A DNA stretch of 64,000 nucleotides from Candidatus Multivoradales bacterium (GTDB taxonomy: Bacteria; Acidobacteriota; Thermoanaerobaculia; Multivoradales; JAHEKO01), in contig CBDCYF010000005.1 in NCBI GenBank assembly GCA_965224065.1, positions 2,751,616 to 2,815,615 on the forward strand. Reading direction: 5' to 3'. This document shows positions 29,951 through 47,814 of this stretch, in pieces (position 1 is the first letter of the stretch; each line of letters starts with the position of its first letter). The notes beneath the pieces are model-generated. The model worked only from the letters and a program-made list of their open reading frames with translations, ran no database searches and was not told where the DNA came from. The position numbers were made by a program, and so were the translations under genes.

Positions 29951-29965
29951 GGCCGGGGAAGAAAA

Positions 29966-31360: not shown

Positions 31361-31593
31361 GAACGCCTGAAGCGGCCGGCGCCCCTGCCGGCCAATCTCG
31401 GGCGGGGGCAAGCCCCGCCCCTACCTCCGGACAGTTTCCCCTTGAAGCGCCCGGCGCCCCTTCGGGCGGTTGGGCCGTTGTCCCAGCGGGCCTGCGGACC
31501 GTCGCCTCCTCCGGCCAATCTCGGGCGGGGGCTAGCCCCGCCCCTACCTTCGGACGGTTTCCCCCTGAAGCGGCCGGCGCCTCTGCCGGCCGT
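31361..31593. repeat. Composite REP-like repeat cluster in the aceF-lpdA intergenic space (type B hairpin, type A hairpin, then type A and type B again).
   Basis: Type B ctgaagcggccggcgcccctgccggcc at 31367-31393 and 31565-31591. Type A gggcgggggcaagccccgccc (8-bp stem GGGCGGGG/CCCCGCCC) at 31400-31420 and 31524-31544. The flanks of each copy are near-identical. Confidence 0.7.
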
Positions 31594-31616
31594 TTCCTGG
31601 CCTAAGGTTCTCGTCG

Positions 31617-33492: not shown

Positions 33493-33557
33493 TGCAGGAT
33501 CATGCCGGGGGCTGATCGAACCCGATCAAAGGGAGTGGCCGGTTAGGAGGGGTGGAC

Positions 33558-35345
33558 GTGAGAGATCCAAAAAGGGTATTTCTCTTGGCTCTGGCACTCG
33601 TCGCGGTGGGTGCGGTCCCCGCGACGCCCCAGGATCCAACAGCCGAGCCGGAGACTCCGCTCAGCGCCGACGAAGAGCACGAGAAGCTCTTTCTCGAGAA
33701 CCGTTTTCCATCCGCGGCCACCTGCGCCACGTGCCATCCGAGCCACTATCGGGAGTGGTCGGTGTCGCCCCACGCCTACGCCCAGATGAGCCCGGTGTTC
33801 AACGCCATGCACGGCACCGTCCTGAAGGTCACCAACGGTACCAACGGGGACTTTTGCATCCGGTGCCACACGCCGGTGGGGATGAACCTGGAAGAGCCCG
33901 AGTTCATGAGCAACATGGACCGGCATCCGACATCCCGCGAAGGCGTCACTTGCATCGTCTGCCACCGGCTCAACAAGGCCTACGGCAAGCTGAGCGGTCG
34001 GCTGGCGATCGTCGAGGGGGATCTGTTCGAGCCAGTTTTTGGCCCCTCGGGAAACGACGAGGTCGAACGGGTGATCCAGTCAAGCGACTACCGGGTGAAC
34101 CCCGAGCGCGGCAAGGCGGGGCGTGCCATCCACGGCCGGGCGGAGAAGTTCTTCCAGCTCACCACCTCGGGCTTTTGTGCCACCTGCCACGACGTCAACC
34201 TGGTCAACGGATTCCGGCTCGAGGAAGCCTTTAGCGAGTTCAAGACCTCGCCGGCGGCGCGGAACGGGGTCTCCTGTCAGGACTGCCACATGAGCACCGA
34301 GCCGGGGGTGGACTCCGGGTATGCCGAGGGTCCGGCGGCGGTAGTCGGACGCAGGCAGACCCAGAGCCGCAAGCTCACCGACCACATGTTTGTCGGTCCC
34401 GACTACTCGATCGTCCATCCGGGAATCTTTCCGCACAACACAAAGGCCTCGGAGATGGCCACGATCCGGCAATGGCTGACCTTTGACTACAGAGCCGGAT
34501 GGGGGACCGACGAGTTCGAGATCGATGTCCCCGAGAGCTACTCCTTCCCCGAGCACTGGCGCTCGGCCGACGATCGCTACGACGCGCGCGACGTCCTGGA
34601 GGAGAATCTCGAGCTGTTGCGAGAAGCCGAAGCCGCGCGTCTTCAGATTCTGCGCGCCGGGTACAAGCTGGGTGAGATATTGGTCGACAGGGCGGACAAA
34701 AAAAAGGGTCTCGAGTTCCGGGTGGAGGTCAAGAACGGCACCGACGGCCACGGGGTACCGACCGGTTTCGACGCCGAGCGTCTGGTCTTTCTGCAGGTGA
34801 CCGTGGCCGATCGCTCCAGCGAGGTGATTTTCCGTTCCGGCGACCTCGATCCGAACGGCGACGTGCGCGACAACCATTCGCTCTATGTCCACAACGGCGA
34901 GCTGCCGCTGGACAAACAACTCTTCAGCTTGCAGTCGCGGTTTGTCACCCGGATGATCCGGGGCGGCGAGCGCGAACAGGTCCTGGCGGTCAACTACTCA
35001 CCCGACCCGCTGCCGTTTCTTCGGCCTTCGACATCGTCGACCATCTTGACCGGACGACCGCGGGGAGCGCGCAAACACAAACAGAACATCGAGCCGCTCG
35101 GCAGGCGCTGGGCGCGCTACCGGGTGAAGCCCGAGGCGCTGACCGGCAACGGGCCGTACGTCGCGCGGATCCAGCTGATCGCCGGGATGGTGCCGGTCAA
35201 CCTGATCCACGAGATCAAGGGCGTTGGTTTCGACTACGGCATGTCCGCCCGCGAGGTGGCGGAGAAGGTGGTGGAAGGCCACCAAGTCGTGTGGGATCGG
35301 AAGCTCGAGATCGCCACAGAACCGCCACAAGTCGCTGAGCGATGA
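33558..35345 (+). CDS. Pentaheme c-type cytochrome, secreted.
   Basis: Five CXXCH motifs: CATCH, CIRCH, CIVCH, CATCH, CQDCH. Signal peptide RVFLLALALVAVGAVPATPQD. About 595 aa. The GTG start was chosen by RBS spacing. Confidence 0.7.
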   Translation: MRDPKRVFLLALALVAVGAVPATPQDPTAEPETPLSADEEHEKLFLENRFPSAATCATCHPSHYREWSVSPHAYAQMSPVFNAMHGTVLKVTNGTNGDFCIRCHTPVGMNLEEPEFMSNMDRHPTSREGVTCIVCHRLNKAYGKLSGRLAIVEGDLFEPVFGPSGNDEVERVIQSSDYRVNPERGKAGRAIHGRAEKFFQLTTSGFCATCHDVNLVNGFRLEEAFSEFKTSPAARNGVSCQDCHMSTEPGVDSGYAEGPAAVVGRRQTQSRKLTDHMFVGPDYSIVHPGIFPHNTKASEMATIRQWLTFDYRAGWGTDEFEIDVPESYSFPEHWRSADDRYDARDVLEENLELLREAEAARLQILRAGYKLGEILVDRADKKKGLEFRVEVKNGTDGHGVPTGFDAERLVFLQVTVADRSSEVIFRSGDLDPNGDVRDNHSLYVHNGELPLDKQLFSLQSRFVTRMIRGGEREQVLAVNYSPDPLPFLRPSTSSTILTGRPRGARKHKQNIEPLGRRWARYRVKPEALTGNGPYVARIQLIAGMVPVNLIHEIKGVGFDYGMSAREVAEKVVEGHQVVWDRKLEIATEPPQVAER

Positions 35346-36802
35346 GACAAGCGCCGCGGATCTTGCTGGTGTCGTGCCTGCTGGCGGCTGGGGTTGCCGG
35401 ACGGGCCACGGCCTGGCCGTGCCCCGCGGCCGCGGGGGACGAGAAGCCGGCCAAAGCGGACGACCCCGAATCCCGCCATCCGTCGGCCCATCATTCGAGC
35501 CGGTTGAGTGACGAGTACATCCCGCTCCAGCTCGAAGGCTTCCCCAAGCGGCCCAAGCTGCTCCTCGAGCTGGGCAACCCCTATCTCGGCACCGGCAACA
35601 TCAAACCCGGCTTCGAGCTGCCGACCGGCGCGGTCTGGCAGCCGACTCTCATTCTTTTTGGCACGCTCCGGACCGCGGTTCAGAGCTTCGAGGCCGGCGG
35701 TGCCCGGTTCAGCGAAGTCGCCGCGCGCCTCGACCTTTTTGCCAACCTCCAACTTTCGGGCACCGAGCGTCTGGTGGTGGGGTTCCGCAACCTGGATCGG
35801 GAAGGCCGCTTTACGAGCTACGTCATCGAGCCCGAACCGGCGGACGGCGACCGGTTTCGCGAAGAGCTCAACGCCGATATCCAGAGCCTCTACTTCGAAG
35901 GCGATTTTGGCGAGATCTTCCCCAAGCTCGACAAGGAGGACTTTGGCCGTAAGGACTACGGCTTTGCGATCGGGCGCCAGCCGCTGCTCTTTCAAGAGGG
36001 GATGCTGATCGATGATTCGATCGACGGCATCGGCATCACCCGCAACACGCTGCTGCCCAGGAACACGTCGAATTTTCGCGCCACGCTCTATCTGGGCTTC
36101 GAAAATGTCCACCGATCGAATTTCGAGGATGACGAAGCGGATCTGTTCGCGTTGTTGACGTCGACCGATTTTCGCGCCTCGACAGTCGACGCGGACCTGG
36201 CCGTGGTGACCGGATCCGATCGCCACGGCGACCAGGCGAACCTGGGCGTGAGCGCCGTCCAGCGCCTGGGCAAATACAACACGTCGTTTCGAGTGCTCGC
36301 GTCGAGCGCTCTGGATGAAGAGACCTTCTTCAGCACCGACGGCGTGCTGCTCTTTAGCGAGGTGTCCTGGACGCCGCACTACACGCACGATCTGGTCTAT
36401 GTCACGACGTTTGCGGCCCTCGACCGGTATTCGTCCGCCGCCCGCGGCCCGGCCACCGGCGGTCCTCTGGGTCGAGCGGGAATCAACTTCGCCGCCGTCG
36501 GTTTGGGTCGCTTTGGGGCCCCGCTGTCGAGCGTTGCCTGGGATGTGGCCGGTGGCGCGGTCGGGTACCAGAAGTTTCTCGGGCCCGAGAACCGGCGCCA
36601 GGTGCTCGCCGAGCTGGGGGTGAGATTGGGTCTTGCCGACTCCGTTGCCGACTCGGCGGCGGTGAGTGTGCGTTATCAGACCGCGGTGGGGCGGCGGCTG
36701 GTTTTTGGGGTCAGTGGCTTTGGCGCCCGGATCGAGAGCACGTCCGGAGCCTCCACCGACGACCGCTACGGGGGACGTTTCGAGGTCACGCTCAAGTTCT
36801 AG
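35342..36802 (+). CDS. Outer-membrane beta-barrel protein (porin-like; possibly alginate-export/AlgE-like family).
   Basis: Signal peptide MRQAPRILLVSCLLAAGVAG. Alternating amphipathic beta-strand pattern throughout. C-terminal ...RFEVTLKF ending in Phe, which is the OMP beta-signal. The ATGA overlap with the upstream cytochrome stop suggests coupling. Confidence 0.55.
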   Translation: MRQAPRILLVSCLLAAGVAGRATAWPCPAAAGDEKPAKADDPESRHPSAHHSSRLSDEYIPLQLEGFPKRPKLLLELGNPYLGTGNIKPGFELPTGAVWQPTLILFGTLRTAVQSFEAGGARFSEVAARLDLFANLQLSGTERLVVGFRNLDREGRFTSYVIEPEPADGDRFREELNADIQSLYFEGDFGEIFPKLDKEDFGRKDYGFAIGRQPLLFQEGMLIDDSIDGIGITRNTLLPRNTSNFRATLYLGFENVHRSNFEDDEADLFALLTSTDFRASTVDADLAVVTGSDRHGDQANLGVSAVQRLGKYNTSFRVLASSALDEETFFSTDGVLLFSEVSWTPHYTHDLVYVTTFAALDRYSSAARGPATGGPLGRAGINFAAVGLGRFGAPLSSVAWDVAGGAVGYQKFLGPENRRQVLAELGVRLGLADSVADSAAVSVRYQTAVGRRLVFGVSGFGARIESTSGASTDDRYGGRFEVTLKF

Positions 36803-36839: not shown

Positions 36840-38963
36840 ATGCTGGTCGCGCCGTTGACTCTTGCTCACAGCGCGTATGCCCAGGGTACGCGCGATCTGC
36901 CCTTTCTCGAGCATTCACGGGTCGATCCGACCAAGGTTCTTACCGCCGAGGCTTGCGGCGAGTGCCACATCGCCGAATTCGAGGTTTGGGAAAAAACGCC
37001 CCACGCGACCGGCTTCAAGACGCTGCATCGCAAGCAGCAGGCGGAGACGATTGCGCGCAAGATGGGGTTTCGGTTGATCAAGCGCGACAGCCTCTGCTTT
37101 AGCTGTCACTACACACCGGTGGTCGATGACGACCGGATCCGGGTGGTCTCGGGGGTCTCGTGCGAGTCGTGCCACGGAGCGAGCGCCGATTGGATCGACG
37201 TCCACAATGACTATGGGGCCGGCCGGGACTATCGCAGCGAGCCCGCCGAGGCGCGCCGCGAGCGCGAGGAAAAAAGCCGCAGCGCCGGAATGCGCCGCCC
37301 TTCGGACCTCTACCCGGTGGTCGCCAACTGCTTCTCCTGCCACACGGTGCCGAGCGAGGAGCTGGTCAACGTGGGTGGGCACACCACCGGCAGCGGCGGG
37401 TTCGAGTTTGTCGAATGGTCCCAGGGGAAAATCCGGCACAACTATCTCGACGTCGTGCGGACCGGCAACCCCGGCCCCAACGCCACCCGGCCGATGGAGC
37501 GCCGCCGGGCGATGTATGTGGTCGGTCGCGCTCTCGATTTGGAATTCGGCCTGCGTGGCCTGGCCGTGGCCAAGGAAGACGGGGTCTACGCCAAGGCGAT
37601 GAGCCGGCGGGTGCGGAGCGCGCTCGCCGAGGTCCGCGCGATCGCTTCTGAAGCCGCGTTGCCCGACGTCGAAGAGATGGTCCGAACGGTCCAGAGCGTG
37701 CGGGTGGTGCCGCGAAACGAGGCGGAGCTGCTCGCGGCAGCGGAGAAGATCGGCGCCGCGACGCGCCGCTTCCTCGATCGTCACTCGACCCTCGACATGG
37801 CGGCGCTCGATCCCCTGATGACCGGAGGGGGCGGCGGGGAAGCCGCCGAAGACACGCTGGCAGCTGCCGGCGAGCCAGAGGGCCTTGCCGATGTAGGAGA
37901 CGCCGAGCCCGGCGCAGCAGGTCTGTCCGCCGGCACGGTGCGGACCGTTTCGGTAGCGGGCGGTCCCGGGCGGGGCCCGGCGTCCGCCGCCTCACCGGCG
38001 GCAACGGCCGGCCAGGGTGTGGTCGGGGAGTTCAAGCGTTCGATCCGCCCAAAGTCCAAGCACCGAACGCTTGGCCCCGGCAGTTGCAGTGGCTGCCACG
38101 GTCCGCAAAACGAATGGTGGTTTGGCCACGCGCACTACCGGTCGGCCGACCCGTTCTTCGACGGCGCCGCGGCAAATCTCCAGATCGCGCGTCTCTACGG
38201 TGTCAAGACATCCGAGATCACGCGGGGCAAGAACATCTGTATGGACTGCCACGGCACGGTGATCTCAGGCAAGGAGTCGCGCGATGTGCTCGACGGCGTG
38301 AGCTGCGAGAGCTGCCATGGGGCCGCCGCCGACTGGCTCGAGCCGCACAAGGACGAGACCGACAAACAGCTCGGCCGCCGCCGGCCGGGGCATCTGGCCG
38401 CCCTGCGGCGCGGCAAGCTGGATCTGGCAGACGCCGGAGCTCGTGCCGAGCGCTGCGCCGGGTGTCATTATGTGACCGACCGGCGGCTGCTGTCGGCGGG
38501 GCATCCGTCGGGCGCCGACTTCGACTTCGCGCGCGCCATGGCCGAGGTCCGTCACTGGCAGCGGCCGCTCGAGCCGGCCGTGCAGTTGGCCTCCGCTTAC
38601 ACGCGGGTCAAGAGCGCGCGCGGGCCGGTGCCCGATGTGCCCAGGGCGGTACTCGCGGCGGCCGGCAGCCGCGTCGAAGGAGGCTCGAAACGCGGCGCCG
38701 TCGCCACTCGCCGGGCCGTTTTTGCAACCGGCACTGCGCCGGGATCGTCGGGCGCTCCGATTCCGATCGCCCTGCTCGATCCGCCGGCGCCGCGACCGGC
38801 CGCCGCCGGATCCCGTTCCTCGAGTCAGGGCCCGCCGGTCGATCTGCCGCCGTTTCCGGAAATCACGGAGTCGACTCCGATCGAGGACGTCTTGCTGATG
38901 CTTCGCGAGCGCCTGGCCCGGTTGTACCGGGCCGTGGCGCCGGGAGGGAGCGGCACCCCATGA
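36840..38963 (+). CDS. Octaheme c-type cytochrome built from two related tetraheme modules joined by an Ala/Gly/Pro-rich linker.
   Basis: Eight CXXCH motifs: CGECH, CFSCH, CESCH, CFSCH in the first module and CSGCH, CMDCH, CESCH, CAGCH in the second. Both modules contain VSCESCHGA(S/A)ADW. The start is ATG 36840 (or GTG 36837) and is uncertain. Confidence 0.7.
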   Translation: MLVAPLTLAHSAYAQGTRDLPFLEHSRVDPTKVLTAEACGECHIAEFEVWEKTPHATGFKTLHRKQQAETIARKMGFRLIKRDSLCFSCHYTPVVDDDRIRVVSGVSCESCHGASADWIDVHNDYGAGRDYRSEPAEARREREEKSRSAGMRRPSDLYPVVANCFSCHTVPSEELVNVGGHTTGSGGFEFVEWSQGKIRHNYLDVVRTGNPGPNATRPMERRRAMYVVGRALDLEFGLRGLAVAKEDGVYAKAMSRRVRSALAEVRAIASEAALPDVEEMVRTVQSVRVVPRNEAELLAAAEKIGAATRRFLDRHSTLDMAALDPLMTGGGGGEAAEDTLAAAGEPEGLADVGDAEPGAAGLSAGTVRTVSVAGGPGRGPASAASPAATAGQGVVGEFKRSIRPKSKHRTLGPGSCSGCHGPQNEWWFGHAHYRSADPFFDGAAANLQIARLYGVKTSEITRGKNICMDCHGTVISGKESRDVLDGVSCESCHGAAADWLEPHKDETDKQLGRRRPGHLAALRRGKLDLADAGARAERCAGCHYVTDRRLLSAGHPSGADFDFARAMAEVRHWQRPLEPAVQLASAYTRVKSARGPVPDVPRAVLAAAGSRVEGGSKRGAVATRRAVFATGTAPGSSGAPIPIALLDPPAPRPAAAGSRSSSQGPPVDLPPFPEITESTPIEDVLLMLRERLARLYRAVAPGGSGTP

Positions 38964-40606
38964 GTGAGACCGGCTCGGCGGCGCTCGACAAGACCACGCT
39001 CCGGCGGGTCGAGCAGTATCGGGACCGCTGGACTTCGGAAGAAACCGACTCCGGCCTGCTCGAGATCTCGGACCGTCTGAGCGCCGCGGCGTTGCGCGAG
39101 TTCGAGATCTTCTCTGACTACGACGACAAATTCCTCGAGAAGATCAGCCCCGACGTCTCGCTGGCGACCTGGCGCGAGGGCGCGGTTCTGTTCGAGGAGG
39201 GCGCCTACATCGACCTGGCGTTCTTCGTGGTCGGCGGAGAGGTCGAGGTCTACCTCCGAGGGGTCGAGGGTGCGAGCCAGGGTCCGCGACCGATCTTCGA
39301 TCTGTCGCGCACGATCGTCGGCGCCGCGGAAGGAACCGATTCCTCGCGCGTGACCGAGCCGGGCACGGTGTTGATGCGCCAAGCGACTCGAACCGCATCG
39401 ACACAGATCACCCTCCTGACCACTATGGATTTCGATCTGCCACGCGACGCCGTCACGCGGTTGGGAGAGGGCGAGCTCTTTGGCGAGATCGGCTCGATGA
39501 GCGGTTGGCCGCAGTCGGTGACGGCCCGCACCGCCACCGAGTGCCGTCTGCTGCAGATCCGGGTGCCGGCACTGCGGTTGATGAAGCGCAAATCCAAGGC
39601 GCTCAAGCAACGGCTCGACGCCCTGTACCGGGAGCGCTCGCTGTCCTCCCAGCTCAAGAGCACCCCGGTCTTTGCGGACTGCAACGACATCTTTATCGAG
39701 GCGCTCAAGGAGAAGGTCGAGTTGGTCTCCTGCGATCCGGGCGAAGTGGTGGCCCGCGAGGGAGAGGTGGCCGACGCGTTTTACGTGCTGCGTTCGGGGT
39801 TTCTCAAGCTCTCGCAACGATTCGAACAAGGCGAGATTGTGGTGTCCTATCTCTCCAAGGGGATGAGCCTTGGCGAGATCGAGTTGCTGATCGACGGGGT
39901 GGACGAGTGGCAGACCACGGTGACGTCGGTCGAGTACGCTGAGCTCATCAAGTTGCCCAAGGAGATCTTCGAGCAACTGATCGGCAGCTACCCGGAGATC
40001 AAGGAACGGCTGTGGCGCTCCGCCACCGACCGGGTGCGAGAGGCGGGCTTCAGCCGCCGCAACATCGGCCACGCCGAGTTCACCGACGTCGCTCTCGAGA
40101 CCGGACTGGTGCAGGGCAACAGCATCCTGGCGATCGACCTGGCGAGCTGCACACGATGCGATGACTGCGTGCGCGCCTGCTCGGCGACCCACGGCGGACG
40201 GTCGCGTTTTGTCCGCGAGGGCGACAAGGTCGAGAACCTGCTGATCGCCAAGTCCTGCTACCACTGCCGTGACCCGGTTTGTCTCGTCGGGTGTCCGACG
40301 GGCGCGATCCATCGGGCCGGCGTCGGCGACGTAGTGGCCGTGGATGAGGAGATTTGTATCGGCTGTTCGAGCTGTTCGCGCAACTGCCCCTACGACGCCA
40401 TCGTGATGCACGAGATGGGTGAGAAATGGCCCGACGACATGGTGCCCCAAGGTCTGCGGGGCAAGGACCGCAGCGTGGCGAGCAAGTGCGATCTTTGCTA
40501 CGACACCGGGCACGGCCCCGCGTGTGTGAGCAATTGCCCGCAAGGCTGTGCCTACCGGGTCGGCTCGCTCGAGGAGTTTCAAGAGCTGCTGGCGGGGTGG
40601 AGATAG
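38960..40606 (+). CDS. Cytoplasmic iron-sulfur protein with two cyclic-nucleotide-binding (CAP-effector) domains fused to a four-cluster [4Fe-4S] ferredoxin (NrfC/DmsB/PsrB-like).
   Basis: Two cNMP-binding beta-roll domains (GELFGEIG...SVTARTAT and ...GMSLGEIELL...). Four Cys clusters: CTRCDDCVRAC, CYHCRDPVCLVGCP, CIGCSSCSRNCP, CDLCYDTGHGPACVSNCP. No signal or Tat motif. The ATGA overlap with the octaheme stop suggests coupling. Confidence 0.7.
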   Translation: MSETGSAALDKTTLRRVEQYRDRWTSEETDSGLLEISDRLSAAALREFEIFSDYDDKFLEKISPDVSLATWREGAVLFEEGAYIDLAFFVVGGEVEVYLRGVEGASQGPRPIFDLSRTIVGAAEGTDSSRVTEPGTVLMRQATRTASTQITLLTTMDFDLPRDAVTRLGEGELFGEIGSMSGWPQSVTARTATECRLLQIRVPALRLMKRKSKALKQRLDALYRERSLSSQLKSTPVFADCNDIFIEALKEKVELVSCDPGEVVAREGEVADAFYVLRSGFLKLSQRFEQGEIVVSYLSKGMSLGEIELLIDGVDEWQTTVTSVEYAELIKLPKEIFEQLIGSYPEIKERLWRSATDRVREAGFSRRNIGHAEFTDVALETGLVQGNSILAIDLASCTRCDDCVRACSATHGGRSRFVREGDKVENLLIAKSCYHCRDPVCLVGCPTGAIHRAGVGDVVAVDEEICIGCSSCSRNCPYDAIVMHEMGEKWPDDMVPQGLRGKDRSVASKCDLCYDTGHGPACVSNCPQGCAYRVGSLEEFQELLAGWR

Positions 40607-40610
40607 GGCG

Positions 40611-41459
40611 ATGCCGGAAGCCGCGGGCAAGCTGCATCTTCGCGGGGGACGCCACCGATCGCGCGGGCTCTACGTCTTTGTGCTGGCCATTGCCGCCGCC
40701 CTGGTGGCGCTGACCGCAAACCTGGCTTTTTCCGAGCTCCGTCCGGGCAACGCCTGGGGGCTGACTTACGGCACTCTCGCAGCGTTGCTCCTGGTGGCGG
40801 CCGCGGCCCTAGGGGTCCGCCGGCGCGCTATGAAGACGTCTTCACGTCTGAACGCCGGCAGCGCTCGCCCGTGGCTCGCCTTCCATCTCTACGGCAGCTT
40901 GCTTTTTCTGTTGATCCTGCTGATGCACAGCGGGTTTCGTGTTCCGGAGGGCCGCATCACCTGGTGGCTCTGGGTCGCCAGCTTGTGGATGGTGGCGACC
41001 GGAGTCGTCGGCCGTTTGCTGCAAAAGTGGCTGCCACGCGTCCTGGCGTCGGGTCTTTCGACCGAGGTGCTCTACGAGCGGATTCCCGAGCTGGTCGAAG
41101 AGATCGCCGGCCGGGCCAAGGCCGTGGCCGAGACCTCCGGCGACGCGATCCGCGCACTCTACGATCGAGTGCTGGCGCCGGCACTGGGCAGTCCACGGCG
41201 ACGGTGGATCTACTTAGTCGACGTCACCGGCGGGATCCAGGCTCGGCTCAAAGAGTTTGAATACCTGCGCGCTCTACTCCCGGAAGGCGAGCAAAAAAAG
41301 CTGGACGAGCTCGAGCGGCTCTATCGAACCAAGCTCGAGATCGACGCGCACTACACGCTGCAACTGCCCCTTCGCTGGTGGCTCTACCTCCACCTGCCGG
41401 TCACCCCGGTGGTGCTGGCGCTGTTGCTGCTTCACCTCTACACGGTGCTTTTCTATTGA
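40611..41459 (+). CDS. Integral membrane protein, putative di-heme b-type transmembrane electron carrier (cytochrome b / ferric-reductase-domain-like His pattern).
   Basis: Five predicted TM helices. TM3 (WLAFHLYGSLLFLLILLMHSG) and TM5 (WWLYLHLPVTPVVLALLLLHLY) each carry two His 14 positions apart (His-x13-His), the spacing used for bis-His heme b ligation in cytochrome b and NOX/FRD proteins. The function is inferred. Confidence 0.45.
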   Translation: MPEAAGKLHLRGGRHRSRGLYVFVLAIAAALVALTANLAFSELRPGNAWGLTYGTLAALLLVAAAALGVRRRAMKTSSRLNAGSARPWLAFHLYGSLLFLLILLMHSGFRVPEGRITWWLWVASLWMVATGVVGRLLQKWLPRVLASGLSTEVLYERIPELVEEIAGRAKAVAETSGDAIRALYDRVLAPALGSPRRRWIYLVDVTGGIQARLKEFEYLRALLPEGEQKKLDELERLYRTKLEIDAHYTLQLPLRWWLYLHLPVTPVVLALLLLHLYTVLFY

Positions 41460-43045
41460 GCAAAAAGAAGAGCGGCAAGGGCGCTTTTGGCGATCTCGAC
41501 CTGCCGGTGGCGACGGCCTATCCGAGTCAGTTGTCACGCCGCCGGATGCTCCTGCTGGGAGTGGTCGCGGTGGCCGTGATCGCGGCGTTGATCGCCTATG
41601 TTCAGTTCACGGGCAGCAGCCGTTGGGCCTCGAAGGGTCCGCTGTCCTCGGCGCACGCGGCGTTCGAGTGCGGCAGTTGTCATGCGTCGGACGCTCGTAC
41701 GGTGACCGATGAGAAGTGCTCGTCTTGCCACGAGAAGTTCGGCGACGAGCTGGGTGTCTACACGTTTGCCTCGCACTACTTGTACAAGTCCGACGACTTC
41801 CGTCGCCTGGTCCCCTCGTCGGATGAGAAGCCTTGCTCGGCCTGCCATCTCGAACACGAGGGGCGTCACGCCGACATCACCCGAGTCGGAGACGCGCGTT
41901 GCGAGACCTGCCACTTTGCGTCTTTTGACAAAGACCATCCGGAGTTCGATTTTGCCGCCGAAGAGATCCCGGATCCCGCCGCGCTCGATTTCGCCCACGT
42001 CCACCACGTACGCGAGGTCATGAAGCGTCAGAAGCTCGACGACATCGAGGCCTCGTGTCTCTATTGCCACAACGCTCAGCCCGACGGGCGTGCGTTCCAG
42101 CCGACCTCCTTCGACCGGCATTGCGACGCCTGTCATCTCACCGCGGCGGTATCCACGCCCGGTCTGCCGATTGCGGGCGCTGCGGCGGGTGTCGAGACCC
42201 TGGAGCAGATCGCCGAGCGGGGCGGCCCGGGCACACGCTGGGTCTATTTCTCGAACCCCAACGAGTTCCGGGTTCGAGGCTCCGCGGTCGTCAAGACGCC
42301 GCTACACCACAAAGACCCCTGGGTACTGGACAACCTGCGGCGTTTGCGCGGGATGCTCTATCCTGACGCCGGCCTCGCCGACCTATTGCTCGCGTCGCCC
42401 GACGCCGAGCCGCATGAGATCCGCGCGCTCTATCAAGAGGCGATCGCCGCCCTCGAGGAGCAGGTCGTTGGGTTGCGCGGTCGCCCCGAGCCCGAGATCC
42501 AAGCGGAGCTCGGGCGGATCACCGATCTGCTCGAACGGCTGAAGCAGCAGGTGGCGGACCCGTTTGCGCCCCTCGACGAGACGCGCTTCGCCCTGGCGCT
42601 CGACAGAAAAGCCGATGAGCTCGGCTCGGAAACACAGGGCGAGATCGAGGGCTTGATCGAGGAGTTGACCCGGCCCTGTCTCCAGTGCCACGAGCTGCGC
42701 GCGGCGACGATCGCGCGAGTCCAAAAGGACCAGCGCGTGTTGAGACGCGCAAAGTTCGACCACCGAGCCCACATCATCCAGGCGCGTTGTCTGGATTGCC
42801 ACCGCGGAATCCCCATCGCGGAGGGGCTCGAGTCGGAAACGCCGACCACGCCGACAGACTCTGAGCTAGACCATTCGGCGATCCAGAATCTACCGGGGAT
42901 CGAGACTTGCCGCACCTGTCACCGGTCGCAGCAGGCCGCCGACCGCTGCGTGACCTGTCACGACTTCCACGCCGACAAGAGCCGGCGATCCGAGCTGTTG
43001 CTGTATTTGGGAGAGGACGTACCGGAAGAGGAGGCGAGGTCGTGA
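41456..43045 (+). CDS. Membrane-anchored decaheme c-type cytochrome.
   Basis: Ten CXXCH motifs: CGSCH, CSSCH, CSACH, CETCH, CLYCH, CDACH, CLQCH, CLDCH, CRTCH, CVTCH. The N-terminal TM anchor is MLLLGVVAVAVIAALIAYV. The proposed TTG start at 41456 overlaps the upstream stop. ATG 41546 is an alternative. Confidence 0.7.
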   Translation: MSKKKSGKGAFGDLDLPVATAYPSQLSRRRMLLLGVVAVAVIAALIAYVQFTGSSRWASKGPLSSAHAAFECGSCHASDARTVTDEKCSSCHEKFGDELGVYTFASHYLYKSDDFRRLVPSSDEKPCSACHLEHEGRHADITRVGDARCETCHFASFDKDHPEFDFAAEEIPDPAALDFAHVHHVREVMKRQKLDDIEASCLYCHNAQPDGRAFQPTSFDRHCDACHLTAAVSTPGLPIAGAAAGVETLEQIAERGGPGTRWVYFSNPNEFRVRGSAVVKTPLHHKDPWVLDNLRRLRGMLYPDAGLADLLLASPDAEPHEIRALYQEAIAALEEQVVGLRGRPEPEIQAELGRITDLLERLKQQVADPFAPLDETRFALALDRKADELGSETQGEIEGLIEELTRPCLQCHELRAATIARVQKDQRVLRRAKFDHRAHIIQARCLDCHRGIPIAEGLESETPTTPTDSELDHSAIQNLPGIETCRTCHRSQQAADRCVTCHDFHADKSRRSELLLYLGEDVPEEEARS

Positions 43046-43506
43046 AGGCCAAGCTGATCTCACAGTGGGGATCGACCCGCGGCACCGAGCACGGGATCGC
43101 CGGCGAAGCCACCATCGGGCGCGCCGAAGACAATTCGATTTGCGTCGGTGCGCGACCGGTGTCGTCGCACCATGCGCGGGTCTTTTTCAACGGCGACCGC
43201 GGGCTCTATTACGTCGAAGACCTGGGAAGCCTCAATGGCACCGAGCTCGACGGAATGCGGATCACCCGCGCCGAGCCCCTCGGGCGGCTCCATGTTCTCC
43301 GCTTTGGTGGGGTCGCCGAGTTCCTGTTTGTCGAGCTGGATCGCACCCCGGCCTTTGACGGCTCCGAGCCATCACCCACCAAGGTCCCGTCGGCGGCCGA
43401 CGCCACGGATCAAACTCATGTCGATGCCAAGCTCCCCGAGCTGCCCGAGGCCCTGCGCACTGACACGGCGCCACCGCAACCCCCAGAAGAAGACGGCGGC
43501 GAGTGA
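43042..43506 (+). CDS. FHA domain-containing protein (phospho-threonine binding).
   Basis: 154 aa. FHA signature TIGRAEDNSICVGARPVSSHHARVF...GLYYVEDLGSLNGTELDG. A GTGA overlap joins it to the decaheme stop. Confidence 0.65.
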   Translation: MKAKLISQWGSTRGTEHGIAGEATIGRAEDNSICVGARPVSSHHARVFFNGDRGLYYVEDLGSLNGTELDGMRITRAEPLGRLHVLRFGGVAEFLFVELDRTPAFDGSEPSPTKVPSAADATDQTHVDAKLPELPEALRTDTAPPQPPEEDGGE

Positions 43507-43518
43507 AAGAGGGCTGAC

Positions 43519-45759
43519 GTGGCGGCCCTGGACATCCTGATCGTCGGTGGCGGACCCGCCGGCACGGCGGTGGCCTTTCGCGCCCGCGAGCTGGGTCTCG
43601 ATGCCCTGGTCATCGACTACGACGATCTGATGAAACGCATCCGCGACTATTCCAAGGACAAGCTCATCCTGCCGGCCTTTGGTGGTGGCGACAAGGTGTG
43701 CTTTCCCAGGGGTGGCGATCTCGTCGAGTGTCTTCAGTTTCAACCGATCGACAAGGACGACATGTGCGCCGAGTGGAAGGCGCTTTACGAGAAGCACGAC
43801 ATCGCCAGGCGTGTTGGACTTGAATTGACCGGGCTCGAGCCCTTGGAGGATCGCTATCGCGCCGTGACGTGGGATCACAACCGGCGCACCGAGGAGTGCT
43901 TTGAGGCCCGCCACGTTGTGCTGGCGATCGGTCGCGGGGTGCCGCGGCGCTTCGACATCCCGGGAAATACCGATGGCATCGCCTATCGGCTGGCGGACCC
44001 CGAGGACTACGTCGGCAGCCCGGCGTGCGTGGTGGGTGGCGGCACCTCGGCCGCCGAAGCGGTCATCGCGATCTCCAACGCCAAGTCGCAGGCCGGCGAC
44101 GAGAGCTCGGTCTACTGGTCCTACCGCGGCGACAAGATGCCGCGTGTCTCAAAGTCGCTGGCCGGCGAGTTCTTTGCCGCCTATGTCGGCAACGGCAACA
44201 TTCGCTACTTCCGCAAGAGTGAGCCGGCTGCGATTTCCGTCGGCGACGACCGGCGCGAATACCTCGCCGTCCGGGTCGACCGCCACCAAATGGCCGGCCG
44301 GCCCAACGAGCTGACACTCCTCGAGTTCCCAAAGGAGATGTGCCTTGCCTGTATCGGGGAGGATATTCCCGAAGCCCTGCTCAACTCGTTTGGAATTCAT
44401 CTTGCGACCGGCGGTCCCAGGGGGCGCAAGCGGATGGTCGTCAATCGCTGCCTCGAGACCTGTCGCCCCAACGTCTATCTGATCGGCGACCTGCTGTCCC
44501 AGGCCTATTTCGAGACCGAGGACTTCGATGCCGACCCGGCCGGTTTTCGTGAGATCAAACATCGCGGCAACATCAAATCCGCCCTGCGCGACGGGGTGCG
44601 GGTGGCGCAGATCATCGAGCAGCGGCTGGCCGGCAAGGAGGATGTCGTAGTCGACATCGAAGACGCCGAGGATACGGGCTCCGGTGTCTCGATTGCCGCG
44701 GTCTCCGCGCCTCTGGGATCGAGCGGGCCGCCGCGGGAAAGTCTCGGTGAGGGTCGCTCCGAGACCGAGGCCGAGGCGTTCGTGATTCGGGTGCTGCCGA
44801 CCGGTGTCGAAGAAGACGAGTACCCGGTTCGCTCGCACGGGATCACCACGATCGGGAGCGGGGACTGCGACCTGTCGTTTCCGAGCGATTCGATGCTTGC
44901 GCCGTGCCACGGCTCGGTCTCCCATGGAGAAGAGGGCTACTTTCTGCGCGATGACGGCAGCTCGACCGGGGTGTTTCTCAAGATCGCGCCGGCGCGCAAG
45001 GTCGAGCTCTCGAGCGGCGACCTGCTCCGCGTGGGCCGGCAGTTTCTGGTGCTCCAGCGAGAGAACGGTGTGGCGTCGCTCGTCCACTACTCGGCCGATG
45101 GCGAGGAGCGGGGGCAGCTCGCGCTCGAGCCCGGGAGAACCTGGGTGCTCGGGCGCGGCAACCCCGACCGGGTGCTCGACGCCGGGGACAAGACCCTGTC
45201 GCGGCGGCACCTTGCGGTCTCGTTTGAAAAAGGGGTCGTTCGAGTCAAGGACCTCAAAAGCGTCAACGGGACGTTTCTTCGCGTCCGCCCGGCGCGCCGG
45301 CTCGAACACGGCGACCAGATCCGGCTCGGACAGCAACTCTTGACCTTCAGCCTACGGGGCGAGGCCGCGCTGGACCCGGGAATCGAATCGCGGTCGGCGT
45401 CGGTTGGCGGCGCTGTCGAAGGCGGTACCGAGGCGACACCGGCGCCCGGCCCCGGACAGGCGAGTGTGGTCTTTCGCGGCTCGGGATCTGATGCTCCCAT
45501 CCCGGTGGCGGCGGGTCAGAGCCTGTGCGAGGCGGCCGAGGCCGCCGGAGTCGAGATCACCGCCGAATGCCATTCCGGGATTTGCGGCAGCGATCCGATC
45601 CGGATCGTCTCGGGCGCCGAGTACCTCGCCGGGGACGCTGCCGACCAGGAGCGCGAGACCCTCGAGGAACTCTGCGAGGTCGAGCCGGGCTCGTGCCGGC
45701 TGGCCTGCATGACACGGATCAACGGCCCGGTCGTCGTCGAGCTCCTGAGTTCGGACTGA
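43519..45759 (+). CDS. Multidomain redox protein: FAD/NAD(P)-binding pyridine-nucleotide oxidoreductase domain, then two FHA domains, then a C-terminal Cys-rich ferredoxin-like ([2Fe-2S]?) domain.
   Basis: N-terminal ILIVGGGPAGTAVA (FAD) and VVGGGTSAAEAV (NAD(P)) Rossmann motifs. FHA-1 is ITTIGSGDCDLSF...GYFLRDDGSSTGVFL. FHA-2 is TWVLGRGNPDRVLD...SRRHLAVSF...DLKSVNGTFL. The C-terminus carries CHSGICGSD...CRLAC. 746 aa. Confidence 0.65.
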   Translation: MAALDILIVGGGPAGTAVAFRARELGLDALVIDYDDLMKRIRDYSKDKLILPAFGGGDKVCFPRGGDLVECLQFQPIDKDDMCAEWKALYEKHDIARRVGLELTGLEPLEDRYRAVTWDHNRRTEECFEARHVVLAIGRGVPRRFDIPGNTDGIAYRLADPEDYVGSPACVVGGGTSAAEAVIAISNAKSQAGDESSVYWSYRGDKMPRVSKSLAGEFFAAYVGNGNIRYFRKSEPAAISVGDDRREYLAVRVDRHQMAGRPNELTLLEFPKEMCLACIGEDIPEALLNSFGIHLATGGPRGRKRMVVNRCLETCRPNVYLIGDLLSQAYFETEDFDADPAGFREIKHRGNIKSALRDGVRVAQIIEQRLAGKEDVVVDIEDAEDTGSGVSIAAVSAPLGSSGPPRESLGEGRSETEAEAFVIRVLPTGVEEDEYPVRSHGITTIGSGDCDLSFPSDSMLAPCHGSVSHGEEGYFLRDDGSSTGVFLKIAPARKVELSSGDLLRVGRQFLVLQRENGVASLVHYSADGEERGQLALEPGRTWVLGRGNPDRVLDAGDKTLSRRHLAVSFEKGVVRVKDLKSVNGTFLRVRPARRLEHGDQIRLGQQLLTFSLRGEAALDPGIESRSASVGGAVEGGTEATPAPGPGQASVVFRGSGSDAPIPVAAGQSLCEAAEAAGVEITAECHSGICGSDPIRIVSGAEYLAGDAADQERETLEELCEVEPGSCRLACMTRINGPVVVELLSSD

Positions 45760-45760
45760 A

Positions 45761-45830
45761 GCGGCCGGCGCCCCTGCCGGTCGTTGGGGCCGGTGTCCCG
45801 CCGGCCGACCCTACCCGGCCGGAAAATCGA
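45761..45830. repeat. REP-like hairpin element (type B) between convergent genes. Probably a bidirectional terminator.
   Basis: tgaagcggccggcgcccctgccgg..., the same unit as at 31367 and inside aceF. Followed by further GC palindromes (ccggccgg). Confidence 0.6.
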
Positions 45831-47814
45831 CTCGGATAAACGTGTACATCCGGCCGGCCACGCCGTCTCGGACCGCGGGCCGGAAGGTCGCTCCCTTGGC
45901 GGCTGCCATCGCGGCCTCCTTGAGCTTGCGCTTGAACGATGGGCGCTTGACGCTGGTCGAGAGCACCTTGCCGTGCTCGTCCACCAGCGCGGTGACCATA
46001 ATGGTCGTCGCGGTCCTTGGCGGTCCGTCTTCGAGCTTTGGTGGCGGGAGATGGAGGAGCACCGGTGGGATCACACCGAGAGCCCCCGGTTGATAGACCT
46101 CCTGGGTACGGCCGCGAGGCGGCGGTCCTCCCCGCGGGTCGCCGGGTGGTGGCGGACGGTGCTCCGGCGGGGGTTGATCTCCGGGTGGCCCACCGGGCTG
46201 CGGCCGCCGGCCCTCCGGACCGGTTCCGGGTGGCCCGGCTTCCGGAGCGGGGCGGCCCGATGGGTCGGACGGCGGCGTCGGCTCGGCTCGAGGCGCGGAT
46301 TCTTCGGGTGCGGGAATCGCCGCGGCTTCCGCTTCCGTAGGCGGTGGCTGCGGGACGGCGGTCAGCGCGAGATCGGCGTCGCCGGTCTCCGGGGTCCAGC
46401 GTTCCGCGGGATCCACGGCGACGGTCTCGCCACGCTCCGCCACCGCGTCGCCATCGCCATCGCCATCGCCACCGCCCCCGGATCTCCAAAGAAACCACCC
46501 GACGGCGGCGAGCGCGAGCAGCGCCGCCACTCCCAATCCGGCGGCTACCATCGGGAGCCGTTTCCCCTTTCCCGAGGCCGCGGGCGCCGGCTGGGTCGCT
46601 GGCGCCACCGTGGTGGGCTCGTCGGCCAGCATCTCGCGATACTTGGCGAGCTCCGGGACCTCGCCGTGCCGGGCCAGGGCCTTGTCCAGCAGCCGCTGGG
46701 CCTTGTTCTGCTTTCCGGCCGCCAGAATCTTGTCGATCTTGGCGGCATCCTTGGTGAGTTGCCGCAGGTCGACCGTCTTGGCCTTCTTTCCCGTCATTTC
46801 GGTGACCCGTGACGGTTCGGGTGTGGTGACCATGCCAAAGTCGCGATCCAGCCGGCTTTGGGTGGAGCCGGGCTCCTTGGATTCGGAGATCTTCGGCAAC
46901 GCGACCGCCGTGGCGCGAATGGTCGTGTCGAGCTCGGTGCGGAGAGAGCTTTTTGGGTTCCGGAATCCCGTGAGCGCTTCCGCAAATTCCATCGCGCTCG
47001 CGTGCCGGTTGTCGGGCTCTTTCTCGAGCGCCTTGAGCACGGCCTCGCGCAGCCCGGTCTCGATCCGGCCGTCTTTGTCCGTCTCGTCAAACGCGCGCGG
47101 AGCCTGGAAAAGATGGCAGCCGGCGAGCTCGGTAAAACTGTCGCCCTCGAAGGGGTACTCGCCGGTCAAGAGCTGGTAGAGCATCACCCCGAACGAATAG
47201 ATATCGCTTCGGTGGTCGAGCTCATCCGAGCCCGCCTTGGCCGAGAACTGCTCGGGCGAGCTGTAGCGGACCTTGCCGAGAAAAACGCCGGTCTGTGTCA
47301 ACTGGGCGACGGCTTCCAGGTTCTTGGCAATGCCCAAATCGATCAGCTTGACCACCGGACCGCCGGAGTGGTCCGAAGCCAGCATGATGTTGTCCGGTGA
47401 GATGTCGCGGTGGACGAACTTCTGATCGTGGAGATAGCCCAGAGCTTCGAGTGCCTGGGTCGCGAGCGCGATCGTCAGGTCGACGCTCGGTGGCCCCGTG
47501 GCCTTCAAGACCGCGTTCAGCCCGACGCCGTCGATGAACTCCATGACGATGTAGGCGGTTCCCTCGTCGGTCACCGCGAAGTCGTAGAGCTGTGCGATGT
47601 TGGGGTGCTTGAGGCGAATCGCCATCTTCGCCTCGCGCAGGAAGCGGCGCTGTATCTCTTCCTTGGACGCCGCTTGGGGCCGCAGGACCTTGATGACCCG
47701 GATCTCCTCCAGCAGCCGGTGCTTGACCTTGTAGACCGAGCCGATGCCACCCTCCCCGATCTTGGCGAGGATCTCGTACTTGCCCTCGAGCATCTCCTGG
47801 AGCGGCATGGTCAT
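45811..47814 (-). CDS. Serine/threonine protein kinase with a TM segment, a Pro/Gly-rich periplasmic region and a C-terminal TonB-C-like domain.
   Basis: Kinase motifs GEGGIGSVYKV, HRDISPDNIML, DLGIAK, SPEQ. TM segment MVAAGLGVAALLALAAVGWFLW. A (GD)n run. The C-terminal about 90 aa (PPVLLHLPPPKL...GKVLSTSVKRPSF...LKEAAMAAAKGATFRPA...) resembles the TonB C-terminal fold. Confidence 0.75.
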   Translation of the reverse strand: MTMPLQEMLEGKYEILAKIGEGGIGSVYKVKHRLLEEIRVIKVLRPQAASKEEIQRRFLREAKMAIRLKHPNIAQLYDFAVTDEGTAYIVMEFIDGVGLNAVLKATGPPSVDLTIALATQALEALGYLHDQKFVHRDISPDNIMLASDHSGGPVVKLIDLGIAKNLEAVAQLTQTGVFLGKVRYSSPEQFSAKAGSDELDHRSDIYSFGVMLYQLLTGEYPFEGDSFTELAGCHLFQAPRAFDETDKDGRIETGLREAVLKALEKEPDNRHASAMEFAEALTGFRNPKSSLRTELDTTIRATAVALPKISESKEPGSTQSRLDRDFGMVTTPEPSRVTEMTGKKAKTVDLRQLTKDAAKIDKILAAGKQNKAQRLLDKALARHGEVPELAKYREMLADEPTTVAPATQPAPAASGKGKRLPMVAAGLGVAALLALAAVGWFLWRSGGGGDGDGDGDAVAERGETVAVDPAERWTPETGDADLALTAVPQPPPTEAEAAAIPAPEESAPRAEPTPPSDPSGRPAPEAGPPGTGPEGRRPQPGGPPGDQPPPEHRPPPPGDPRGGPPPRGRTQEVYQPGALGVIPPVLLHLPPPKLEDGPPRTATTIMVTALVDEHGKVLSTSVKRPSFKRKLKEAAMAAAKGATFRPAVRDGVAGRMYTFIRVDFPAG

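Follow-up and report, generated by a model that had tools for sequence, protein, structure and literature searches.

The 64,000-nucleotide stretch of DNA analysed here (the window), from a Candidatus Multivoradales bacterium of the phylum Acidobacteriota, carries at positions 38960..40606 of the + strand a gene whose open reading frame (ORF), translation, and Pfam matches describe a PtdE-like protein of 548 amino acids (aa), in which tandem domains of the cyclic-nucleotide-binding (CNB) fold are joined to a four-cluster [4Fe-4S] ferredoxin. We propose, with a probability of roughly 0.6, that this protein is a PtdE-type cytoplasmic Fe-S electron-transfer subunit of a trans-envelope multihaem-cytochrome system, and that it is modulated by a ligand other than a cyclic nucleotide monophosphate (cNMP) and by kinase/FHA signalling. 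Multihaem-cytochrome conduits drive the cycling of metals, nitrogen, and sulfur, and both the entry of electrons into them from the cytoplasm and their posttranslational control are poorly known. The family described here puts a sensor module directly on the Fe-S subunit that would feed such a conduit, beside an FHA-bearing flavoprotein and a kinase.

Architecture of the PtdE-like protein

The ATG of the gene overlaps the stop codon (TGA) of the upstream cytochrome gene as ATGA at 38960-38963, a GGAGG-like ribosome-binding site is found at 38947-38955, and the ATG of the following PtdF-like gene lies 4 nt past the stop. A 601-aa antisense ORF, 38825-40630 (-), was rejected as a shadow ORF of 66% GC DNA, homology and conservation being all in the + frame. 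In the Pfam scan, cNMP_binding (PF00027) matched with an E value of 1.1e-28 (99.4 bits versus a cutoff of 27.5) in three stretches, a consequence of the split in the first of the two CNB domains (CNB-A), and Fer4_11 (37.5 bits versus a cutoff of 26.2), Fer4_7, and Fer4_9 scored above their cutoffs at aa 427-530. The same scan gave no match to any helix-turn-helix (HTH) family, and with no HTH past the CNB domains a CRP/FNR-type transcription factor is ruled out. Foldseek with the AlphaFold2 (AF2) model retrieved the tandem-CNB regulatory (R) subunits of PKA and PKG with E values of 1e-17 to 1e-15, nucleoside-bound kinetoplastid structures being among the matches. An earlier note, made from the sequence alone, had described two CNB-fold domains without an HTH, and this description is borne out. 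Neither a signal peptide nor a transmembrane (TM) segment is predicted, and the N-terminal RR pair is not followed by the hydrophobic stretch of a Tat h-region. Hence the protein has no Tat or Sec signal, and it is predicted to be cytoplasmic, as the earlier note had also held.

The C-terminal four-cluster ferredoxin domain covers aa 388-535 (40121..40564, +), as judged from Cys conservation, PDB alignment, and Fer4_11. Its four Cys groups are all complete: C397/400/403/407 (CxxCxxCxxxC; 40148-40180), C433/436/441/445 (CxxCxxxxCxxxCP; 40256-40297), C466/469/472/476 (CxxCxxCxxxCP; 40355-40390), and C510/513/522/526 (CxxCx(n)CxxxCP; 40487-40540), all on the + strand. Conservation was counted over 135 aligned family members, and all 16 cluster Cys are invariant in 135/135; among the wider-family representatives that cover the Fe-S region, all 16 are kept in 121 of 132. 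Thus, the four motifs are present as quoted in the earlier note, and their conservation in orthologues, on which that note had made its reading depend, holds. A PDB sequence search matched aa 387-541 to four-cluster ferredoxins, HycB3/HycB4 (7qv7) being the best (E=1.7e-15), and the 16 Cys align one to one with those of HycB3/HycB4 (7qv7), HycB (7z0s), and PsrB (2vpw).

The earlier note had further called the ferredoxin DmsB/NrfC-type and linked it to molybdoenzyme complexes. By E value, the best NCBIfam match is indeed DmsB (1.7e-17). The equivalog scores, however, are far below the cutoffs: 63.9 versus 214.1 for DmsB (TIGR02951), 46.7 versus 377.6 for NrfC (TIGR03149), and 54.5 versus 200 for DsrO (NF045797). 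Besides, the window ORFs that were scanned include neither a molybdopterin catalytic subunit nor an NrfD/DmsC-type anchor; no unscanned downstream ORF exceeds ~510 aa, and the unscanned ORFs are therefore too short to encode a molybdopterin catalytic subunit. Neither was seen in 30+ related loci. On these scores, on the missing molybdoenzyme and NrfD-type partners, and on the lack of a Tat signal, orthology to DmsB, NrfC, or DsrO is ruled out. By its family matches, the label is true at the superfamily level only, and the link to molybdoenzyme complexes falls.

At the other end of the protein, a conserved helix (aa 11-24; 38990..39031, +) ends in the invariant D22-R23-W24, as seen from the alignment columns (134/135 relatives). 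AF2 also places a helix at aa 11-24, with low confidence, and it is possibly a docking element. The AF2 model has a mean predicted local distance difference test score (pLDDT) of 65; it is confident for the CNB-A core and the second CNB domain (CNB-B), and pLDDT falls below 50 for an insertion in CNB-A and for the Fe-S domain.

CNB domains and their ligand cassettes

CNB-A spans aa ~45-235 (39092..39664, +), as delimited by HMMER against PKA R subunits, AF2, and Foldseek. Its beta-roll is interrupted by the insertion of ~60 aa (aa 101-160; 39260..39439, +), which is evident from both pLDDT and alignment column counts, so that the tandem beta-rolls of the earlier note stand with this correction. 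The insertion is a variable Pro/Ala-rich loop between the motifs P-I-F-D-x-S-R-T (111-118) and E-I-T-F-L-A-T-M-D-F-D-L-P-R-G (149-163); P111 is kept in 133/135 family members, and R117 and T118 are kept in 126/135. Speculatively, T118, in the first of these motifs at the insertion edge, is a candidate phosphorylation site, which the kinase and FHA proteins encoded nearby might target. CNB-B with its C-terminal helices (aa 236-381; 39665..40102, +; Pfam, AF2) forms the linker to the Fe-S domain. Its best Pfam stretch is aa 256-343, its pLDDT is 85-96, and in the AF2 model its C-helix runs straight into the Fe-S domain. In the PDB sequence search, aa ~130-350 of the protein align with the tandem CNB-A/CNB-B of PKA regulatory subunits.

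In canonical CNB domains, the cyclic phosphate is contacted by an Arg of the phosphate-binding cassette (R209 and R333 in PKA RIalpha and R82 in CRP), and the loss of this Arg leads to a drastic fall in cNMP affinity in both PKA and CRP. The CNB-A cassette of the PtdE-like protein, F-G-E-I-G-(A/S)-M-S-G-W-P-Q-S-V-T-A (aa 174-189; 39479..39526, +; HMMER alignment), is almost invariant, with G175, E176, I177, G178, G182, W183, and P184 found in 135/135 members and Q185 in 134/135. The HMMER alignment puts Gln185 opposite the phosphate-binding Arg209 of PKA RIalpha (site A). The CNB-B cassette, L-G-E-(V/I)-E-L-L-x-D-G-x-D-x-W-(E/Q)-x-T-A-x-S (aa 304-323; 39869..39928, +), was aligned by HMMER to PKA RIalpha and yeast Bcy1; it is two residues longer than the canonical cassette and brings Trp317 opposite Arg333 of PKA RIalpha (site B). 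Here, G305 and E308 are conserved in 135/135, E306 in 131/135, and W317 in 114/135. CNB-B also carries Glu in place of the cassette Ala (E308, giving G-E-x-E), where CNB-A has Gly (G178, 135/135). The Gly-Glu pair of the cassette, which binds the ribose 2'-OH, is kept in both domains. The strong conservation of its cassette argues that CNB-A is a functional site.

The earlier note had proposed that cAMP, cGMP, or a related ligand gates the protein directly, and had named the absence of the phosphate-binding cassette residues as evidence against this. The comparison with PKA finds the Arg replaced by Gln185 in CNB-A and by Trp317 in CNB-B, with E308 in addition, and the idea of gating by cAMP or cGMP fails on this ground. 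Precedent for such pockets comes from trypanosomatid PKA-R, in which replacement of the Arg together with the Ala-to-Glu change (G-E-x-E) does away with cAMP binding and yields sites with nanomolar affinity for nucleosides; the residues at the Arg positions of TbPKAR are T318 and N442, and the cassette Glu clashes with the cyclic phosphate of cAMP (PMC10959531).

The wider family, of which the best 150 representatives were inspected for cassette residues, is different. A canonical Arg is present in CNB-A of 111 (e.g., in Y-P-R-S-A-T-V), many of which also have it in CNB-B, and the 15 with G-W-P-Q constitute the orthogroup of the PtdE-like protein. The G-E-x-E of CNB-B occurs in 8 of the 11 representatives of this Gln185 orthogroup that have residues there, and it does not figure among the patterns most often seen in the 111 paralogues with Arg. 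As most paralogues keep the Arg and the orthogroup differs from them, the lineage seems to descend from probable cNMP sensors, both pockets having been remodelled. To judge from these cassettes, what the pockets sense is most likely a ligand that is no cyclic nucleotide, or else a partner segment, rather than cAMP or cGMP, and our leading guess for the ligand class is a ribose-containing metabolite. The remodelling of the ancestral cNMP site in the orthogroup redirects experiments from cAMP and cGMP toward a ligand screen. The candidates for true cNMP-controlled Fe-S proteins would be the Arg-keeping CNB-CNB-four-cluster fusions, not the protein in the window.

Membrane partner, gene cluster, and distribution

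The PtdF-like gene directly downstream (40611..41459, +) encodes a membrane protein with five TM helices and a cytoplasmic helical domain, and AF2 and His conservation define in it two H-x13-H pairs. H92, H106, H261, and H275 are invariant in 25/25 homologues; the pairs H92-x13-H106 and H261-x13-H275 are placed on TM3 and the last TM helix of the AF2 model (pLDDT 83), and both are kept even in a 29%-identical paralogue. Paired His ~13 residues apart on two TM helices are classical for two stacked bis-His b haems, as in cytochrome b, NarI, and ferric-reductase domains. By this pattern, PtdF is a probable dihaem-b partner of PtdE and may represent an undescribed family of dihaem membrane electron carriers. 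Searches of Pfam, NCBIfam, and PDB folds gave no match for it, and no similarity to FRD/NOX/cytochrome b families was seen by sequence or fold, so that the label "ferric reductase-like," used in the preprint that described the ptd genes, was not reproduced.

The remaining genes of the cluster are consistent with an electron conduit across the envelope. The PtdA-like protein (33552..35345, +; exact start uncertain) is a pentahaem cytochrome c with a signal peptide, 5 CxxCH motifs, and a Cytochrome_C554 domain; it is homologous to pentahaem cytochrome c552 (PDB 5ze8; E=1.5e-12) and 60-80% identical in related loci. The PtdB-like protein (35342..36802, +), whose start overlaps the upstream stop, is a putative outer-membrane beta-barrel (porin) on the basis of its N-terminal signal peptide, its C-terminal ...EVTLKF, and its cluster position, which is conserved in related loci; it has no Pfam or NCBIfam match. 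The PtdD-like protein (36840..38963, +), likely starting at the ATG at 36840 and continuing with a signal peptide, is a periplasmic octahaem cytochrome with 8 CxxCH motifs in a 4+4 arrangement and two Cytochrome_C554 stretches. It is an internal duplication, in which two tetrahaem halves are separated by a long Gly/Ala/Pro-rich linker that is probably disordered.

Beyond PtdF, a PtdG-like membrane-anchored decahaem cytochrome c (41378..43045, +; start uncertain, 41456-41546) has 10 CxxCH motifs, one N-terminal TM segment, and cytochrome c3-type domains, and its gene is conserved at this place in related loci. It is followed by a gene for a small FHA-domain protein (43042..43506, +; FHA E=4e-13), whose GTG start overlaps the decahaem stop and is preceded by GGAGG; FHA proteins are encoded in the same position at other loci. 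The last gene of the cluster on this strand, 43519..45759 (+), encodes a PtdC-like oxidoreductase composed of a TrxR/YpdA-like FAD/NAD(P) domain, two FHA domains, and a C-terminal plant-type [2Fe-2S] ferredoxin (Pyr_redox_2, FHA, and Fer2). It matches YpdA and TagH-FHA in NCBIfam and thioredoxin reductase, GarA, and ferredoxin in the PDB, and it is conserved in the cluster. Convergent with this operon, a Ser/Thr protein kinase with a TM segment and a TonB_C-like C terminus is encoded at 45811..47814 (-; Pkinase E=4e-46), and a kinase adjoins the cluster in many loci, including rearranged ones.

The genes on the + strand are tightly packed, with several start and stop codons overlapping or sitting 4 nt apart, and their order is conserved: pentahaem, porin-like, octahaem, PtdE, PtdF, decahaem, FHA, and FAD/FHA/Fer2. 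Of 30 informative loci, which come from Acidobacteriota, Ignavibacteria, 'Deltaproteobacteria', and others, 24 have PtdE and PtdF side by side, and the full nine-gene unit recurs in two further genomes. A paralogue of only 26% identity that retains the CNB-A Arg (locus L036, 1306-3021) stands in a cluster of tetrahaem, CNB-ferredoxin, PtdF-like, decahaem, and pentahaem genes. Because it is kept around so distant a paralogue, we regard the D-E-F-G core as ancient.

A rearranged cluster was observed in Cytophagia- and KSB1-labelled metagenome-assembled genomes (MAGs), at locus L013 (1-15459) and also at L014, L017, L019, L022, and L029. It begins with genes for a two-FHA protein, an HbpS-like protein of the haem-degrading type, an unknown protein, and a 1226-aa multihaem protein with LVIVD repeats, and continues with a tetrahaem cytochrome, PtdE, an outer-membrane-barrel-like protein, and a Ser/Thr kinase fused to an FGE-sulfatase domain. 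In these six loci, the ptdE-like gene is thus still accompanied by a tetrahaem cytochrome, FHA proteins, and a kinase. The conservation of FHA proteins, an FHA-fused FAD oxidoreductase, and a kinase across phyla suggests phospho-threonine control of the electron conduit.

Two other features of the window were noted. A pyruvate dehydrogenase E1-E2-E3 operon (27299-33428, +), with an N-terminal lipoyl domain in E3, lies directly upstream on the same strand; it was ruled out as a functional partner, since its adjacency to the cluster is not kept in other genomes. At 11306-14389 (-), the window encodes another large Ser/Thr kinase, of 1027 aa and with TPR repeats, and the two kinases of the window point to a kinase-rich genome typical of Acidobacteriota or Myxococcota.

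The fusion is common. More than 1600 homologues were retrieved at E<=1e-10 from a 90%-clustered database, the best 120 being full length and 62-82% identical. Those with names are called "cyclic nucleotide-binding domain-containing protein" and come from MAGs of Acidobacteriota, Thermoanaerobaculia, or 'Deltaproteobacteria', and a genome scan added carriers among Vicinamibacteria, Ignavibacteria, Cytophagia-labelled, KSB1, and Multivoradales MAGs. HMMER over 1.84 billion representatives yielded 724 clusters (50% identity) at E<=1e-30 and 2706 at E<=1e-10. All sampled members of the wider family have CNB domains followed by 4Fe-4S motifs, some with extra N-terminal Fe-S modules; one such protein (P0136, within representatives P0128-P0270) carries an N-terminal NuoG-like Fer2_4/Fer4 module. 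From these cluster counts and the shared architecture, the CNB-CNB-Fe-S fusion is old and widespread and no one-off. Nor is the architecture an unrecognised one: more than 700 clusters at 50% identity share it, and the gene had already been named PtdE in a preprint. Apart from that preprint, the literature search yielded no paper on CNB and 4Fe-4S fusions or on this cluster under a different name. What was known already is the fusion architecture in databases and a gene set named once as ptd; the remodelled pockets and the orphan dihaem-like partner offer concrete starting points for experiments.

Proposed role and comparison with known systems

Our proposal is carried by the domain content, the conservation of the Cys groups and pockets, the loss of the Arg, the conserved gene cluster, and the translational coupling. 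In the proposed mechanism, the four [4Fe-4S] clusters that the C-terminal domain of PtdE would hold form a linear wire, which would most likely link the cytoplasmic PtdC-like flavoprotein, with its FAD/NAD(P)H site and [2Fe-2S] center, to PtdF through contacts with both. PtdF, carrying two b-type haems on its two H-x13-H pairs, would let electrons cross the inner membrane, and from there electrons would pass to the anchored decahaem, the octahaem, and the pentahaem/porin pair, and finally to a putative external or periplasmic acceptor. Electrons probably flow outward, with NAD(P)H or ferredoxin as the source and the periplasmic or extracellular acceptor as the end point, by a route that would be quinone independent and whose logic would be analogous to that of NarH-NarI or of NADPH oxidases of separate subunits. 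The N-terminal CNB domains would be regulatory or docking modules derived from true cNMP sensors; most likely, the tandem either shifts docking or conformation upon binding a non-cNMP ligand or serves as a scaffold. The FHA proteins and the Ser/Thr kinase would add a second, phosphorylation-based layer of control. Of the redox wire with gating that the earlier note had suggested, a wire with an attached sensor module is thus a reasonable part, the gene lying in an electron-transport cluster, whereas the cAMP/cGMP gating is not.

Several points weigh against this proposal. Hydrogen bonds from Gln185 and Ser186 to a phosphate are still conceivable and would give a weak or noncanonical cNMP site, and the Fe-S domain is of low confidence in the AF2 model. 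In the six rearranged loci, neither a profile HMM run on the ORFs of all six frames nor a scan for the H-x13-H pattern recovered PtdF from the DNA fetched; its expected place there, upstream of the decahaem gene, falls outside that DNA. Furthermore, the orthology of our protein to the published PtdE was judged from gene content and description, not from sequences, and the function of ptd "remains completely unknown" according to those who described it (bioRxiv 10.1101/2023.11.21.568154).

A stronger form of the proposal, which we put forward tentatively and at odds clearly against it, is that the CNB-CNB-four-cluster fusion is a true allosteric switch, in which a non-cyclic-nucleotide ligand alters docking or conduction by PtdE and so opens or closes a quinone-independent trans-envelope conduit. 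The ligand, perhaps a nucleoside or another ribose-containing metabolite, would sit in the invariant G-W-P-Q-S pocket of CNB-A and in the G-E-x-E pocket of CNB-B. PtdE would stand between the NAD(P)H-linked flavoprotein and the undescribed dihaem membrane protein, and the kinase and FHA proteins could provide a second input, e.g., via Thr118. If true, this would be the first respiratory or extracellular electron-transfer chain to be gated directly by a ligand, and the nucleoside-sensing CNB domains of trypanosomes would have a bacterial counterpart.

It is a little less probable that the CNB domains are ligand-free pseudo-receptors, serving as a scaffold for dimerization or for docking to PtdF, PtdC, or the FHA protein; the pocket may then be filled by an intrinsic peptide segment, as in the CNB-homology domains of KCNH channels. 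Both cassettes are indeed noncanonical, that of CNB-B is only moderately conserved, the conserved N-terminal helix and the motifs flanking the disordered insertion could be intramolecular or partner ligands, and the conserved FHA and kinase partners suggest regulation by protein-protein contacts. A near-invariant CNB-A cassette (G-E-I-G-x-x-S-G-W-P-Q-S-V-T-A) with its ribose-binding Gly-Glu retained, however, is more typical of a small-molecule site, and the G-E-x-E of CNB-B mirrors a proven nucleoside site (PMC10959531).

That cAMP or cGMP binds and thereby directly controls how the Fe-S wire conducts or docks is unlikely in our judgement, even though the strong PF00027 match, the PKA-R-like tandem fold, the ribose-contacting Gly-Glu in both domains, and the very strong selection on the CNB-A cassette speak for it, and even though the ancestral fusion was probably cNMP responsive, given the P-R-S/T-A-T cassette of the 111 Arg-keeping paralogues. 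What decides against it is that the phosphate-binding Arg, whose loss is well established to cut cNMP affinity drastically, is gone from both domains in essentially all 135 orthologues, and that the Ala-to-Glu change seen in CNB-B excludes the cyclic phosphate both sterically and electrostatically in trypanosome PKA-R (PMC10959531).

Even less likely, the protein could be off the main electron path, as an Fe-S/redox sensor of the cytoplasm that controls cytochrome assembly or activity through its CNB domains. Sensor-type domains are joined here to redox cofactors, and the cluster is rich in signalling parts, namely, FHA domains and a kinase. The HycB/DmsB layout of four clusters marks a long-range wire rather than a sensor, and Pfam revealed no output domain; besides, translational coupling between a periplasmic cytochrome gene and a membrane protein gene is the position of a structural subunit, and the D-E-F-G core is kept at 26% identity. 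Finally, a DmsB/NrfC-type subunit of a complex iron-sulfur molybdoenzyme is effectively refuted, despite the shared superfamily (Fer4_11) and the DmsB E value, by the subthreshold equivalog scores, the absence of a molybdopterin subunit or anchor from the scanned window ORFs and the related loci, the lack of a Tat signal, and the cytoplasmic HycB-type nature of the nearest solved relatives.

Our proposal of a ligand- and kinase-modulated electron-transfer subunit can be examined by mutagenesis, for which Q185, W183, E308, W317, and the PtdF His pairs are the targets. Should gating prove real, it would add a new principle to the control of electron transport; without gating, the protein would remain the likely entry point of a quinone-independent NAD(P)H-to-cytochrome pathway.

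By sequence, the closest solved relatives of the ferredoxin domain are proteins of the HycB/HydN type, i.e., HycB3/HycB4 of the hydrogen-dependent CO2 reductase (7qv7) and HycB of formate hydrogenlyase (7z0s). Like the PtdE-like protein with its 16 aligned Cys, they are cytoplasmic and have no signal peptide, and they relay electrons between partner modules. They differ from it in lacking CNB domains and in having hydrogenase and formate-dehydrogenase modules as partners, instead of a haem membrane protein and multihaem cytochromes. DmsB, NrfC, PsrB, and DsrO have the Fer4_11 four-cluster fold and the spacing of the Cys groups in common with our protein, which, unlike them, is without Tat export, a molybdopterin partner, or an NrfD-type anchor and is predicted to be cytoplasmic, not periplasmic. 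NarH-NarI is a functional analogy: a cytoplasmic multicluster ferredoxin, itself a detectable relative of our protein in the PDB sequence search, sits on a membrane protein in which two helices each give two His to two b haems, and in that layout electrons cross the membrane dielectric. PtdF, however, has no NarI sequence or fold similarity, there is no catalytic NarG, and the outer partners would be c-type multihaem cytochromes, not quinol.

For the sensor module, PKA and PKG regulatory subunits are the best fold and sequence matches over aa ~130-350 and share with it the tandem arrangement and the cassette Gly-Glu, whereas our protein lacks the phosphate-binding Arg in both sites, has a 60-aa insertion in CNB-A, and is linked to an Fe-S output in place of a kinase-inhibitory segment. 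CNB-B resembles the cAMP-independent PKA-R of kinetoplastids (PMC10959531 and PMC6440977) in that the Arg is replaced, here by Trp, and G-E-x-E is present (G305-E306-x-E308), while CNB-A differs from it in having Gly, not Glu, at the cassette Ala position. To judge from the sequences compared, this resemblance is most likely convergent, not orthologous.

The nearest system as a whole is the ptdABCDEFG operon, described in marine MAGs of Alpha- and Gammaproteobacteria, Nitrospirales, and Planctomycetes (bioRxiv 10.1101/2023.11.21.568154). According to that report, PtdA is a pentahaem protein with a beta-sandwich and homology to 5ze8, PtdB a porin, PtdC an FAD/NAD(P) oxidoreductase, PtdD a tetrahaem protein, PtdE a CNB-domain protein with 4Fe-4S motifs for which two 4Fe-4S clusters were reported, PtdF a TM ferric reductase-like protein, and PtdG a decahaem protein, and a porin-cytochrome complex was proposed for the products (bioRxiv 10.1101/2023.11.21.568154). 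The cluster in the window likewise encodes a pentahaem 5ze8 homologue, a porin-like protein, a decahaem, and an FAD/NAD(P) oxidoreductase, and in both systems the gene for a CNB and 4Fe-4S protein is flanked by those for a periplasmic tetrahaem-type cytochrome and a small membrane protein. In contrast to the two clusters reported for PtdE, our protein has four complete and invariant motifs. The FAD protein of the window is the last in order and carries FHA and [2Fe-2S] domains, an FHA protein and a Ser/Thr kinase are added, PtdD is an octahaem where both the published operon and the distant paralogous cluster L036 have a single tetrahaem-type protein, and the host belongs to the Acidobacteriota. 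The Arg has been lost from both CNB cassettes of our protein, whereas that of CNB-A persists in at least one distant paralogue from a similar D-E-F-G cluster.

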